From the IMG/VR virus record IMGVR_UViG_3300005573_000004, positions 1-64,000 of that record: a stretch of DNA of 64,000 bases. One strand, given 5' to 3'. A program made the position numbers and the translations under genes. The notes beneath the pieces are model-generated. The model searched no databases. It worked only from the letters and a program-made list of their open reading frames with translations, and was not told the origin of the DNA. The stretch comes from a virus. The first letter of the stretch is position 1, and every line of letters starts with the position of its first letter. Positions 48,553 through 53,331 of this stretch are shown here, in pieces.

Positions 48553-50367
48553 TCACTCCACCTTGATAGTTTTTGATAATCTACTTAAACTAACATTATA
48601 CTTCGGAAATACTTTATCAGATTCACGTTCTTTAGTTTCAATGATTTTTATAATTCTCTCTTCAATAGTTCCAAGAGTAACTAAATTGTAAATATATAAT
48701 TTGGGTGCTGTATTGTTTGATCTATCAATTCTTCCTATGCGTTGTTCTAAATCAGCACTAGACCAAGGTAAATCAAAATTAACAATCGTATCACAGGTAT
48801 ATAAATTATGGGCTCTGGACAAACTATCAGTTCCAAGAAGTATATTAACATCTCCTTCTACAAATTCAAAAATCTCTTTCTTAATCATCTTGCAATATCT
48901 ATATTTTGGGCACTCATTACATTTTGCTATCATTGGATATTTACAACCACGTGCCGAATCTCCAGTTACAACTTTTACAGCATATGTTGGTGAAAGAATT
49001 TTTGCAAGCAATTCTACAGCGGTTTTAAAGAAACTAAATACAACTATTTTTTTCTTCTGTAAATCTACTACCTGATGAATTATTTCTTTTAGTTTATCTA
49101 TTTTATTTGTTGAGTCTTCTATGCTTATATTTGGATATAACAAATATGATTTAGTTTTTGGTCTTCCATGAGAATCAAATATTGGATTACCTTCTAGGTC
49201 TAAAACTGGACGAACTTCTGATACTATAGCTAAAGTATTACAAATCTGACGAAGTATAGTGCCGCTTTCAAATGCAGTCCTTTCTCCACTTTCAATCTCT
49301 TGTTTAATTCTATCCAATTCTTTTTGCTGCAATGGAGTTAATGGAACTGGAAATGAAATCATCTCTTTTGGTTTAACTTCCATAACATCCTTTTTGACAA
49401 TAAAAACTGTCCAAGGAAAAATTTTTCGTTTAATCTCTTCTTCTGCTCCTGGTTTTAATCCTCTTGGATTATTAAATATATCCAATTGTAAATATCTATC
49501 TGAAAAATTCTGTTTACTAGTAAATATATTTGGGTTTATAGTTTTCATTATTCCATACAGATCATAATAATTAGTAACTATTGGTGTAGCTGACAAACCA
49601 TATTTGTATGGTGCATCTAATTCTGATACCCCCTTAAACACATCAGTTGAAATATTTTTTATTTTTGTTATTTCATCAAATAATAAGACAGTCCAATTTT
49701 TGGGAAGATTTTTAAATTCTATTTTTACTGTATCATAAGATGCAATCCAAAGCCAGTATTTGTTCATATCTGCCTTCCCGTATTGAATCCGTCTAGCACG
49801 TTCTTCCGCATTTCCTTCAATAATCAAAAAATCTTTTAAGTCTGTAAATTTTAAAATAGTGTCTATCCAAGGTTTATGAATTTGATTTGATTCGCATACT
49901 ATTAAAACTTTAGCATCAACAAGTTCTTTAAGTTTTAAAATTGTATATAAAGACATAACAGTCTTTCCAAGTCCAACTGGAACGACCAATAAACATTTAT
50001 GCATCAACAACATCTGAGAAATAATACTATACTGATAATTGTATTTTTCTTCTAATTCATTCTTAAACAAACTAGGCTTTGTAATATTAAATGATTTAAT
50101 TTCATTGTTTTTTAATTTTTTAACAATTTCTACTTTTGTAGTAAAATCAATGTATGCCTTTTCTACAACTGGATCTAATTCTACGTGCTCTTGTATTTTA
50201 TTAGCGTATTCCAAAATATCTGCAATCTCCGTAATAGGATATGCCCAAATTTTTTCTAATCTAAAATATACACGTGATGGACTCTTTGGTAACCATTTAT
50301 TAACTAAATAATTATCAGATATTACTTTGCAAAATTCTGGATTAGCACTATGTTCTAGTTTTATCAT
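48553..50367 (-). CDS. SNF2-family helicase
   Basis: GLGKT, LFDE, LSATP, VVFS.F, NFDLPW....EQRIGRIDR, GTIEE. Confidence 0.88.
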   Translation of the reverse strand: MIKLEHSANPEFCKVISDNYLVNKWLPKSPSRVYFRLEKIWAYPITEIADILEYANKIQEHVELDPVVEKAYIDFTTKVEIVKKLKNNEIKSFNITKPSLFKNELEEKYNYQYSIISQMLLMHKCLLVVPVGLGKTVMSLYTILKLKELVDAKVLIVCESNQIHKPWIDTILKFTDLKDFLIIEGNAEERARRIQYGKADMNKYWLWIASYDTVKIEFKNLPKNWTVLLFDEITKIKNISTDVFKGVSELDAPYKYGLSATPIVTNYYDLYGIMKTINPNIFTSKQNFSDRYLQLDIFNNPRGLKPGAEEEIKRKIFPWTVFIVKKDVMEVKPKEMISFPVPLTPLQQKELDRIKQEIESGERTAFESGTILRQICNTLAIVSEVRPVLDLEGNPIFDSHGRPKTKSYLLYPNISIEDSTNKIDKLKEIIHQVVDLQKKKIVVFSFFKTAVELLAKILSPTYAVKVVTGDSARGCKYPMIAKCNECPKYRYCKMIKKEIFEFVEGDVNILLGTDSLSRAHNLYTCDTIVNFDLPWSSADLEQRIGRIDRSNNTAPKLYIYNLVTLGTIEERIIKIIETKERESDKVFPKYNVSLSRLSKTIKVE

Positions 50368-50401
50368 GTCTTTTTCCTCGTATACTTAATTTTTAAACAG
50401 G

Positions 50402-50428
50402 TCCTACTGTATATATACGACAAATTTT
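50402..50428 (-). promoter_or_regulatory. conserved phage promoter-like motif, copy 3
   Basis: AAATTTGTCGTATATATACAGTAGGA. Confidence 0.7.
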
Positions 50429-50495
50429 GGTATTTTTATGAAAAAATTTTTTAAATTTTAATTTTTTCTTATGTTACGAAAACAACGAAAGATAA

Positions 50496-50637
50496 CGAAA
50501 ATACTCCGAAAGAGTAAAAATTTGATAGGTCAAAACTCATGTTTTACACCGCTTTTTTATAGATTAAAGAGTGTTTGATAGGTCAAAACTCTTATTTTAT
50601 ACCGCACTAATTTTTATCAAATTCAATGCGGTGTGAA
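50496..50637. repeat. ~142-bp imperfect direct repeat, left copy
   Basis: Matches 51860..52001 (offset 1364); contains TTTGATAGGTCAAAACT twice. Confidence 0.9.
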
Positions 50638-50725
50638 CTACTTCTGCCTAAAGGCAGAGGCTTCAAGTGACACACTATTTGGAGAAAGATTGGAAGGATT
50701 GTCACTTAGGCTCGTTCCGAGCCTT
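50609..50725 (-). ncRNA. predicted TnpB omegaRNA (scaffold plus guide; 5' boundary uncertain)
   Basis: IS200/IS605-type end GAAGCCTCTGCCTTTAGGCAGAAGTAGTTCAC overlapping the tnpB 3' end. Confidence 0.7.
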
Positions 50726-51792
50726 AATATATTTAAAGCTGAATTAAAATCTCTATCTAAGGAGCAGTTACAATGAGGACAATTATGAATACGAATATCA
50801 AGAGTTTTAGGAACTACTTTTCCACATTGGCTACAAATCTGAGATGTATCTTTGGCTGGAACTTTAACTATTGTTCTACCAGCTTCTGCCGCTTTATAGG
50901 ACAAAATGTTAAAGAACTGAAACCAGGCTACATCTCTCATGCTCCTATTAAGATTTCTAAAACTTGTAAAAGCATTCATTTTTTCGTGACAAATAGTATC
51001 ATAATTATCTACATAATATCTAGCAACTTTATGATGAAAATCAAGACGTTGATTAGCGACCTTCTCATGAACTTTACTCAAAAGCAATTTAGTTTGTTTG
51101 TATTTATTAGAACCTTTGACTTGTTTAGAAAGTTTCTGTTGAAGTTTTTTAATTTTCTCAAAAGATTTATTCAACCATCTTGGATTTTCAATCTTTTTTC
51201 CTTCACTATCTGTAAGAAAACTTTCACAACCTACATCTATTCCAATTGCTTTATTAACCTTTGGAAGAACTTTAGGAGTTATATTATCACAAACAAAACT
51301 AATATACCATTTTCCAGTACTAGTTCTGCGGATAGTAACTGTTTTGATTTTGGCCTCTTTAGGAATTTGTCTATGAAACCTAATTTTGAATATACCTATT
51401 TTAGGAATATTCAAAACAGAACCTTCCAAAGACCAACTTGCTTGTTTAAGAGTAAAGGAATCATATCTATTAGTTCCTTTAAACCTTGGAAATCCTGGAT
51501 TTTCTCCTTTTTTGACTCTATTAAAAAAATTTTGATAAGCTCTATCAAGACGTTCTATAACATCTTGGAGACTTTGAGAAGGAATTTGTTTAAATTCAGG
51601 ATAATATTGTTTGAGTTCCGGAAGTTGTTTTATTTGATCAAATTTAGAAATAGACTTCCTATGGAGCTTCCAAGCATTAATTCTTTGACTAAGACAAAGA
51701 TTATATACTTGGCGACAAAGTTCAAGGACTATATTTGTTTGTTTCTCTGTTGCCTGATTGATATAGGCTCTGAATTTATATGTCTTTTTCAT
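50638..51792 (-). CDS. tnpB: RNA-guided endonuclease TnpB (solo, no tnpA)
   Basis: YKFR HTH start, GFPRFK, RuvC GIDVG / ICHE / DRDFNSALNI, TSQICSQCG...CPHC. Confidence 0.95.
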   Translation of the reverse strand: MKKTYKFRAYINQATEKQTNIVLELCRQVYNLCLSQRINAWKLHRKSISKFDQIKQLPELKQYYPEFKQIPSQSLQDVIERLDRAYQNFFNRVKKGENPGFPRFKGTNRYDSFTLKQASWSLEGSVLNIPKIGIFKIRFHRQIPKEAKIKTVTIRRTSTGKWYISFVCDNITPKVLPKVNKAIGIDVGCESFLTDSEGKKIENPRWLNKSFEKIKKLQQKLSKQVKGSNKYKQTKLLLSKVHEKVANQRLDFHHKVARYYVDNYDTICHEKMNAFTSFRNLNRSMRDVAWFQFFNILSYKAAEAGRTIVKVPAKDTSQICSQCGKVVPKTLDIRIHNCPHCNCSLDRDFNSALNILRLGTSLSDNPSNLSPNSVSLEASAFRQK

Positions 51793-51859
51793 TTAGTTTC
51801 TCCAAATAGTGTTTATAGCTTTTGTTTATTTAGACAACTTTATGTCAAAAAAGTTTCGG

Positions 51860-52051
51860 CGAAAATACTACGAAAAAGTAAAAATTTGATAGGTCAAAAC
51901 TATTATTTTATACCGCTTTTTTATATGTTAAATGCTATTTGATAGGTCAAAACTCTTATTTCACACCGCATCAATTTTTATCAAATTCAATGCGGTGTGA
52001 ATCGGCAGTTTTGACCTAAAAAACGGTGTAAATTAACAGTTTTGACCTATC
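51860..52051. repeat. right copy of the direct repeat plus inverted iteron-like units
   Basis: TTTGATAGGTCAAAACT at 51885 and 51938; inverted partial copies at 52007 and 52038; TTCACACCGCAT/ATGCGGTGTGAA inverted repeat 51960-52001. Confidence 0.88.
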
Positions 52052-52366
52052 CTAAAATTTGACTTTTATCTAAAATTCACTTGTAAAATAAGGCACTTTT
52101 TAGATTTGTTCAAGTGAAGGTTGAGGGTGATATATAATAGTATTATAGTATATATTTATTTGGTAGTACTAATAGTATTAATAGTACCATCTAGTAGTAC
52201 TATTAATAAAAATAATATAATTAATACTACATGTACTATTATATACACGCTTTCGTAAATTTTCGTAAACTATCAAAAATCTCTCTTAACTAAATGACTA
52301 CAAGATAGCGTGTACGTTGCGGCCGAAAATTTTTAAATTTTTAAAAATTTTTTTAAAAAAATCCTG

Positions 52367-52392
52367 AATTTTGTCGTATATATACAGTAGGA
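52367..52392 (+). promoter_or_regulatory. conserved phage promoter-like motif, copy 4 (divergent from copy 3)
   Basis: AATTTTGTCGTATATATACAGTAGGA. Confidence 0.7.
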
Positions 52393-52419
52393 GCGAAATT
52401 TTATTAAAACTGAAAGGAT

Positions 52420-53331
52420 TTGTATATGCATAAAAAAGCATTACTTGAATTAAAAAAATTTCAGAGCAGAAAGAATAATAATATCTTTGGATTAAGATTT
52501 AGGTCTTTTAATACAGCTTTGTTTTTTCTTAAACATAAAATTTTTGAAGACGAGTTAAATTTTTATTTGTCCAACATACAATTTACAACTGCTAAGTTTA
52601 TTACTTTTCTTTCTTCAAAAGTTTTTGTATTTTGTCCTTTTGGATCAAAAAAATCCAAAAACAAATCTTGTATAACTTGTCCTTTTAAAGATGGAGCTAC
52701 GTTGTCAATTGAACCAATATTAGTTCTTGGATATTTAGATCCGTTTAAACTTCAAGATTTTATTAGAACTCAAGTACAAATTAAATTTGCACTTCCGTGC
52801 AAACAATTTATAACTCCAAAGTATAGATTTTTGGAAAAGGATAAAGCTTTATTTTTATTGTCTACAAAACAAAATCAAGATGTATATTTATTAACTAGTT
52901 CAGACTATTCTTTAGACCGTATTAATAAACTTTATATTGGATTTAATTTTTTCGGAAATTTAAAAGTTTGGTCTTCAGAAAACTATTTTTGTATTGGGAC
53001 TACTGAGAAAGATTTAAAAACAAATAATATAAATCACGCATTAGAAGAATTGTTATGGATATTAAATAAACCAGAATATAAAAATTCAATTGATAATGTT
53101 TTGATATTTGCCGATTATTTTAAATCTAATAGAATTTCAAAAAAATATTGGAACAGTTATGGGCTCCCGGAGAAACTTTTAGCCGATTTACATAAACACG
53201 GTTTTTTATCTTACAGTGATTATAGATATTATAAAACTAAAAAATTAAACACAGTTTTAAATACTTTAGTGCCTAGCACTAAAATTGAATGTTGTATAGA
53301 TGTTCCATCTGAAGTAGTTGCAGGCTCTTGA
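52420..53331 (+). CDS. hypothetical protein with Cys cluster
   Basis: CPF...CITCPF; first gene after the strand switch. Confidence 0.55.
   Translation: MYMHKKALLELKKFQSRKNNNIFGLRFRSFNTALFFLKHKIFEDELNFYLSNIQFTTAKFITFLSSKVFVFCPFGSKKSKNKSCITCPFKDGATLSIEPILVLGYLDPFKLQDFIRTQVQIKFALPCKQFITPKYRFLEKDKALFLLSTKQNQDVYLLTSSDYSLDRINKLYIGFNFFGNLKVWSSENYFCIGTTEKDLKTNNINHALEELLWILNKPEYKNSIDNVLIFADYFKSNRISKKYWNSYGLPEKLLADLHKHGFLSYSDYRYYKTKKLNTVLNTLVPSTKIECCIDVPSEVVAGS

Follow-up and report, generated by a model that had tools for sequence, protein, structure and literature searches.

The tnpB gene at the strand switch of this viral genome (copy A) is probably an IS605-family gene sitting at a canonical insertion site, beside a duplicated target that carries the element's own terminal motif (TEM) and with a nuclease aimed at the unoccupied sites of related phages. 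The genome is a 149,961-bp IMG/VR virus record with direct terminal repeats and a GC content of approximately 30%, and the window analyzed here comprises its first 64 kb. The original prediction proposed that, should the TAM resemble the TTCAC in front of the guide sequence, TnpB would act on the strand-switch region of its own phage by cutting or binding it. We no longer hold this view, because TTCAC proved to be the end of the element itself and related phages that lack tnpB carry TTTAT at the corresponding position.

Copy A lies in an intergenic region of 2,052 nt (tnpB included) between an SNF2 helicase gene and an ORF of 303 aa; the coordinates of all features are listed in Table 1. The strand switch described in the original prediction is real, with the minimum of the cumulative GC skew near 52000, where the coding strand changes. 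An iteron, GATAGGTCAAAAC...T(T/C)A(T/C)ACCGC, is present six times, clustered in the intergenic region, and the iteron variants TTTAC, TTTAT and TTCAC occur naturally. Direct and inverted repeats accompany the skew minimum, and the repeats are conserved in relatives; operators of divergent promoters are an equally good reading as an iteron-type replication origin. Searches of the ORFs flanking the region against Pfam and PHROGs gave no family match apart from the SNF2 helicase, and an Rfam scan of 50300-52500 returned nothing meaningful. Megablast of the locus against 50,697 GenBank phages gave no match, and in IMG/VR the exact iteron pattern produced nothing beyond single chance matches.

Table 1. 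Features of the tnpB copy A locus, in window coordinates unless stated otherwise
Feature	Position	Strand	Description
SNF2 helicase gene	start 50367	minus	
Origin-like/regulatory intergenic region	50402..52392		divergent promoter-like motifs, iterons, palindrome, AT-rich repeat block
Mirror-image promoter-like motifs	50402-50425 and 52371-52392		
Repeat R1	50496..50637		137 nt of flank plus the element's TTCAC; two direct iterons and the palindrome arm cut by the element
Guide-encoding right flank	50609..50632	minus	ACCGCATTGAATTTGA...; begins at the A/B boundary; first 24 nt of R1 past the TEM
TTCAC (TEM)	50633..50637	minus	final 5 nt of the element, where the predicted omegaRNA scaffold also ends (3')
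Predicted omegaRNA scaffold	50633..50735	minus	within the 3' end of the ORF; three hairpins
tnpB copy A	50638..51792	minus	384 aa
Loop in the omegaRNA region	50672..50687	minus	perfect 16-nt complement of the tnpB RBS (51797-51812)
Remnant of the element's left part	51793..51859	minus	RBS, leader, half of the promoter region
Repeat R2, duplicated flank	51860..52001		contiguous with the right-hand inverted iterons; full palindrome restored
Second TEM and guide copy	51973..52001	minus	TTCAC + 24 nt; exact
AT-rich repeat block	52150-52260		
303-aa ORF	start 52420	plus	
tnpB copy B	134416-135603 (genome)		97% amino-acid identity to copy A

Pfam searches with the copy A protein identified PF01385 (OrfB_IS605; 9e-24), PF07282 (Cas12f1-like TNB; 2e-21) and PF12323 (HTH_OrfB_IS605; 3e-7), and the closest solved structure was ISDra2 TnpB (8bf8/8exa), matched over residues 3-358 with an E value of 3e-53. 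In an alignment with ISDra2-type TnpB, GIDVG, CHEKMN and DRDFN fell on the catalytic motifs, which bears out the earlier statement that the RuvC D/E/D residues are intact, and the CxxC...CxxC zinc ribbon aligned as well. The genome contains a second copy (B), and comparison of the two gave a dN/dS of 0.24, a value calculated from only 7 synonymous and 7 non-synonymous changes. Judged by its sequence, copy A is an IS605-family TnpB of an already known kind, with a TAM/TEM pair like that of ISGst2. The gene appears to be maintained, as indicated by the intact ORF and catalytic residues, the dN/dS, the conserved scaffold and the pairing of the RBS with a loop in the omegaRNA region.

In minus-strand orientation, TTCAC (50637-50633) comes directly after the stop codon TAG (50640-50638) and leads into ACCGCATTGAATTTGATAAAAATT (50632-50609). 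As originally noted, these 24 nt recur exactly, again after TTCAC, at 51996-51973. The alignment of copies A and B runs from the RBS through ...GTAG-TTCAC and breaks off at the very next base; because homology stops exactly there, TTCAC belongs to the element. This comparison also places the element boundary where the guide had been predicted to start, directly past TTCAC. Right ends reading ...TAGTTCAC or GGTTCAC were found in homologues from phage-like contigs (L042, L060, L166 and L169; 67-89% identity), and the four copies in a 164.6-kb contig (G001:C67) end in TTCAC, TCCAC, TCCAC and CTCAC. L060 had also been considered as a nested insertion that might reveal the TAM; it is in fact a degraded gene followed by the stray 3' end of another tnpB.

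The last 103 nt of the element, which form the predicted scaffold, fold into three hairpins at -29.2 kcal/mol (z -3.4), and none of 200 shuffled sequences folded as well. Its hairpins are conserved among homologues, and the right-end hairpin, TCTGCC-TTTA-GGCAGA, lies 10 nt before the element end and fits the expectation for an IS605 right end. A guide length of approximately 16 nt was assumed from ISDra2 (PMC8612924). The pairing between the RBS and the omegaRNA-region loop is kept, with differing sequences, in copy B and in L169, L172, L167, L166, L042 and L165, so that compensatory change maintains it across the subclade. Among 88 homologues this complementarity gave no signal below about 67% identity, and we therefore regard it as a feature of the subclade. 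A covarying pairing of this kind in a phage-borne subclade may be the more original lead to come out of this analysis, and it could point to translational feedback.

The left end of copy A is truncated. In copy B and L165 the left part is approximately 130 nt long and contains a TTTA-loop hairpin followed by a TTGACT...TATAAT promoter; L169 and L172 possess comparable promoter-like boxes downstream of the hairpin, the stem of which varies with compensating changes among these four elements. This hairpin is absent from copy A, and the weak homology that links copy A to B and L165 in this part runs out exactly at the border of R2 (~51859). Copy A thus has a hairpin at its right end and none at its left. 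A promoter scan upstream of copy A gave nothing above the shuffled background, and, with positive controls, a search of the 149,961-bp genome with a profile for TnpA (Y1/HUH, PF01797) found nothing. At its right junction copy A is canonical, with the TEM followed by flank. IS605 elements make no target duplication; at the left of copy A, 137 bp of flank are repeated and the TAM no longer abuts the element. Given the loss of the left-end hairpin and, apparently, of some promoter sequence, copy A may be poorly expressed.

Relatives of the phage were found via SNF2 and neighbour-gene proteins that fall in the same 90% identity clusters as its own; the SNF2 representative of the relatives is 98% identical to the SNF2 helicase of this phage. 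Five contigs from five samples (L177, L178, L181, L182 and L183), which represent three haplotypes, span the region and are 89-93% identical to the window across it. The intergenic region measures 691-697 nt and lacks tnpB in all five. The original prediction had suggested checking whether relatives without tnpB carry one repeat or two: the repeat (R) is present in a single copy in 5/5. A search of IMG/VR and JGI metagenome contigs with SNF2 as the query yielded only a more distant relative (67% identity), which lacks tnpB, differs in its iterons and was too divergent for counting repeats. None of the relatives examined had a canonical insertion without the duplication.

On the tnpB strand, the site in the relatives reads ...AAAACTGTCAA-TTTAT-ACCGCATTGAACTTGATAAAAATT (also given as ...CTGTCAA-TTTAT-ACCGCATTGAACTTGATAAAAATT). 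TTTAT followed by ACCGCATTGAACTTGA... is present in all five and differs from the guide by 1 mismatch in 24, at guide position 12, where the relatives have C and both copies in the window have T. By sequence, this is exactly what the empty site (donor joint) of a TnpB element should look like. We infer that the TAM is TTTAT from this one empty site (three haplotypes) together with four left-end flanks: NTTAT was found 17-21 nt 5' of the foot of the left-end hairpin in 4/4 elements (B, L165, L169 and L172), which is the distance known for IS608. TTAAC, a candidate TAM suggested by B and L165, was ruled out, since it is missing from L169 and L172, and TTAT stands at the expected distance in all four elements. 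In the 164.6-kb contig, the left flanks of the four copies share no motif, lack a hairpin and are uninformative on the TAM. The site of copy A is thus a canonical TnpB insertion site with TTTAT as the predicted TAM and TTCAC as the TEM, as in ISGst2.

The same division of roles between these two motifs has been described elsewhere. TTCAC is the TEM of Geobacillus ISGst elements and differs from the TnpB2 TAM, TTTAT, at positions 3 and 5 only; the target of ISGst2 TnpB is the donor joint, i.e. the TAM plus the right flank (PMC10055086). In Sulfolobus IS605 elements TTCAC is completely conserved at the right end, and it abolishes cleavage by SisTnpB (PMC11043419). It had been pointed out that TCAC serves as a TAM for some TnpBs, and this is true of AmaTnpB (PMC10278001). 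The precedent does not extend to an element that itself terminates in TTCAC. Were TTCAC a TAM here, each copy would attack the junction at its right end.

We also examined the other guides for self-matches. The guide of copy B has no second match in the genome, and within the 164.6-kb contig no second match exists for the guides of its four copies. A search of the genome for TTAT-flanked sites with fewer than 4 mismatches in 16 to the guide of either A or B identified none. Because the other guides lack a self-match, the match of copy A is a one-off result of the duplication rather than a property of these elements. The phage genome contains no target flanked by the predicted TAM.

The second match was traced to the repeats R1 and R2, between which the gene lies, as first described. 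The two are 142 nt long and differ by 16 mismatches (89% identity), and they are 93% (R1) and 91% (R2) identical to the single R of relative L181. The divergence between R1 and R2 (11%) about equals that of each from the relatives, which argues that the duplication is old. For the 24-nt guide-flank sequence, these two sites are the sole 12- to 24-nt matches in the 149,961-bp genome, and the second is not due to chance, because the right flank is duplicated. R2 reads ...CTGCCGA-TTCAC-, followed by the same 24 nt as after copy A. The other arm of the R2 palindrome has likewise changed from TTTAT to TTCAC, so that the palindrome stays symmetrical; as ssDNA it folds at -16 kcal/mol (z -8). A genome search for a GCCGATTCAC template that would explain four transitions at the junction of R2 with the upstream flank found none.

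The perfectly conserved stretch of 29 nt to which the original prediction drew attention is real but not unique, as perfect runs of 25 and 24 nt lie over two iteron cores. If the 16 mismatches are placed at random, the probability of any run of at least 29 nt is 0.33, and that of a terminal run of at least 29 nt is 0.02, so that the stretch is modestly significant by its terminal position and not significant otherwise. Only three states that are derived with respect to the relatives are common to R1 and R2; all three are located within the 29-nt block and none in the other 113 nt, and they correspond to TAM positions 3 and 5 and to the T at guide position 12. ISDra2 TnpB makes a staggered cut 15-21 bp from the TAM, and cuts matching ssDNA without a TAM (PMC8612924). 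The 29-nt block spans positions -5 to +24 around the border between TAM and target, and encloses these cut positions. A passive duplication, originally offered as the fallback explanation, was nearer the truth but incomplete, since the duplicated target is altered at TAM positions 3 and 5.

These observations can be placed in a sequence of events. The element (51859->50633, minus strand) would have inserted 3' of TTTAT in the right arm of the iteron palindrome, within the origin-like region, thereby interrupting the inverted-iteron palindrome at TTTAT|ACCGC. A non-canonical duplication of the 137-bp right flank on the left side of the element may then have rebuilt an intact palindrome beside the upstream sequence, and the ancestral TAM in the duplicate, TTTAT, would have become TTCAC, identical to the element's own end. 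We suggest that the 29-nt block is a gene-conversion tract from the right-end junction, formed after a break at the expected cut site. The conversion probably followed cleavage of a duplicate that still bore the TAM, or arose in the duplication event, for instance if both broken ends were extended along the junction template and then joined.

Because the duplicate carries TTCAC in place of TTTAT, the omegaRNA-TnpB complex would not be expected to unwind or cut its own genome. The only known cognate sequence with a flanking TAM is that of sibling phages, and the most likely role of the putative nuclease is thus in homing or competition against unoccupied relatives. Cutting of an unoccupied allele, with repair that copies the element in, is the established role of TnpB; here it would take place between co-infecting phages. 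A competitive effect is also possible, as the cut would fall in the origin-like region of the relatives. The mismatch at position 12 in all known empty alleles may weaken cleavage, or may represent an escape variant.

In its full form this account describes an RNA-guided homing or competition nuclease directed against the origin palindrome of sibling phages, with the upstream copy as a healed former self-target: aberrant repair of a break would have produced the 137-bp duplication, and conversion would then have changed TAM to TEM, after which the other palindrome arm followed. We put this full form forward tentatively. The 29-nt identity could instead reflect constraint on a protein-binding site, given that the iteron cores are also perfect over 24-25 nt, and the TTCAC in R2 need not derive from the element, as TTCAC is among the natural iteron variants. 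The same coincidence of perfect runs with iteron cores would fit another history, which we consider rather unlikely, in which copy A is an inert, immobile remnant, the duplication and the second match are neutral by-products and its TnpB acts on no DNA. The missing left-end hairpin and part of the promoter, the lack of a promoter-like site above background upstream of the gene, the absence of TnpA from the genome and the position-12 guide mismatch in 5/5 known empty sites are all consistent with such a relic. Evidence against a relic comprises an intact 384-aa ORF in which all catalytic and zinc residues are kept, two copies at 97% identity with a dN/dS of 0.24, conserved omegaRNA hairpins and a 16-nt RBS-loop pairing that compensatory change has maintained across the subclade, and the clustering of the three shared derived changes at the TAM and the cut site argues against neutral by-products.

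Domestication of the system for self-targeting appears very improbable. Here the RNP would bind or nick 51973-52001, through a tolerated TTCAC or through TAM-free ssDNA or a cruciform, and would thereby initiate recombination-dependent replication, control transcription from the divergent promoters or keep out related phages. The exact 24-nt match, at which position 12 co-varies (T in both copies, C in the relatives), and the location of the target in a strong palindrome at the strand switch would suit such a function, and by sequence the nuclease is intact. Recognition of TTCAC could be likened to the TCAC TAM of AmaTnpB, but TTCAC ends all close copies, each of which would then suffer breaks at its right-end junction; it abolishes SisTnpB cleavage and is the ISGst TEM, while the empty sites and left-end flanks point to TTTAT. 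The main route left to this explanation is TAM-independent cleavage of ssDNA at the unwound palindrome, for which ISDra2 provides a precedent (PMC8612924). The lack of a self-match for the other copies, both here and in the related 164.6-kb contig, argues against a self-targeting function, as does a RuvC domain that has not been inactivated, unlike that of TnpB-derived regulators.

The attractive idea of a phage using TnpB on its own origin is thus unsupported, and a largely conventional picture takes its place. The occurrence of occupied and empty alleles in sibling phages, with a TAM/TEM pair identical to that of ISGst2, may provide a natural system for TnpB homing or interference between co-infecting phages. 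The 137-bp duplication and the change from TTTAT to TTCAC may show how a genome tolerates a second copy of a TnpB target. If the upstream copy is indeed a healed self-target, it would be a natural record of TnpB self-targeting and TAM-to-TEM immunization in a virus.

The closest known parallel to copy A is ISGst2 TnpB2 of Geobacillus stearothermophilus (Meers et al. 2023, PMC10055086), with an identical pair of motifs, TTTAT as the TAM at the left end and TTCAC as the TEM at the right. ISGst2 and, by prediction, copy A both take their guide from the right flank, have an omegaRNA that extends into the 3' part of the ORF and target the donor joint or empty site, which is known from excision for ISGst2 and from sibling phages for copy A. 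ISGst2 has complete ends, mobilization by a TnpA in the same genome, a bacterial chromosomal location and no duplication, whereas copy A has a truncated left end, no TnpA, a 137-bp flank duplication and a phage host. ISDra2 TnpB (8bf8, 8exa and 8h1j; Karvelis et al. 2021, PMC8612924) shares the HTH/WED-RuvC-zinc-ribbon layout and the D/E/D triad. Its identity to copy A is approximately 34%, as estimated by comparison with Deinococcus homologues, and its TAM is TTGAT as opposed to the TTTAT predicted here. The IS605 TnpB7 of Sulfolobus islandicus, with a conserved TTCAC before its native guide, is a precedent for TTCAC plus guide as a protected sequence (PMC11043419); it differs in being archaeal and in having TTTAA as its TAM.

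Two further systems can be compared with copy A. TldRs are TnpB-derived RNA-guided transcription factors; they are nuclease-dead, with an inactivated RuvC, and their TAM-flanked target lies near a promoter. Copy A likewise encodes a member of the TnpB family, and its guide has a match within a regulatory region of its own genome, but its RuvC is intact, its self-match is flanked by the TEM and the genome holds no TTAT-flanked target. Large lytic phages also contain free-standing homing endonuclease genes (intronless homing, e.g. T4 seg/mob), which lie next to the site that their nuclease recognizes; sequence differences protect the site in the carrier, and in co-infecting relatives the site is cut and then repaired with the carrier as template. 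The specificity of T4-type nucleases is encoded in the protein, whereas that of copy A, for which homing is a proposal, would be RNA-guided and set by the flank of the element.

Analysis of the minus strand around the window tnpB (copy A) revealed that the ribosome-binding site and leader of the gene are complementary to a loop in the omegaRNA region over 16 nt. The corresponding pairing was 13 nt in the second tnpB of the genome (copy B). In contigs carrying tnpB homologues, it was 13 nt in L169, 12 nt in L172, 10 nt in L167, about 9 nt in L166, and 8 nt in both L042 and L165. The pairing was preserved among these genes despite their differing sequences. Non-cognate combinations paired over at least 8 nt in 4% of trials and over at least 10 nt in 0.2%; no signal was detected among homologues of less than about 67% identity. 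Translational feedback, exerted through the omegaRNA or the 3' end of the mRNA, is a candidate role for the pairing.

Coordinates of the tnpB elements and associated features
Feature	Location	Strand
tnpB ribosome-binding site and leader, copy A	window 51797-51812	minus
omegaRNA-region loop, copy A	window 50672-50687	minus
Copy B including left end	genome 134416-135750 = L002:1453-2790	minus
R2/upstream-flank junction, with GCCGA	window 51997-52008	
GCCGA at the other R2 border	window 51856-51860	
L180 (ENA ERZ27247235 k141_335718), position 1	window 52004	
Promoter-like motif	window 50402-50425 and 52371-52392; L165:3600-3640; L003:5898-5957	
Region in the 67% relative equivalent to the tnpB intergenic region	L003:5370-5930	
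Site of the L165 element (89% TnpB homologue)	L165:3560-3640	
Degraded tnpB and adjoining tnpB 3' end	L060:3300-3845	

Copy B has kept a complete left end, comprising a hairpin and a TTGACT...TATAAT promoter, and is flanked there by GGTTAT. Its stop codon was lost through an indel, so that the open reading frame, at 396 codons, runs on past TTCAC and enters the flank that encodes the guide. Over the 365 residues preceding this C-terminal indel, all five amino-acid differences between copies A and B lie at residues 13-21. We also examined a phage-like contig of 164,629 nt labelled as an Omnitrophota MAG (G001:C67, L184-L198; NCBI GCA_023229385.1, JALNZI010000002.1), which carries four tnpB copies ~70% identical to the window gene plus two distant ones. 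Mutual homology of the four begins only about 57 nt upstream of the start codon; this stretch includes the promoter and lacks the left-end hairpin, and the left flanks share no common motif.

In L060, a tnpB degraded by frameshifts and an internal deletion terminates in GGTTCAC. Immediately after it come the final 65 codons of another tnpB, with its ...GTAGTTCAA end, giving two tandem omegaRNA-like 3' modules. The L165 element, with nrdG and an intein-containing nrdD upstream and a tRNA gene adjoining, has a degenerate 3' scaffold end without TTCAC, which suggests an omegaRNA in decay.

Where R2 meets the flank upstream of it, the window differs from all relatives by four transitions in 12 nt (GTCAATTTAT to GCCGATTCAC), for which a search of the genome found no template; the pentamer GCCGA is present at both R2 borders. 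Contig L180, 99.4% identical to the window, ends 3 nt beyond R2; the assembly of that sample may have broken there at a junction polymorphic in structure or in sequence.

The tnpB intergenic region is bordered on either side by a conserved, outward-facing promoter-like motif, TTTGTCGT(A/C)TATATA(C)AGTAGGA, probably a phage-specific early promoter, which relatives also carry, including before the L165 tnpB insertion. In the 67% relative, the equivalent region contains a 114-aa open reading frame and another repeat set (GGTTACGTCAAAATGACGTAA). This set is unlike that of the window, indicating rapid turnover of putative binding-site repeats between related phages.
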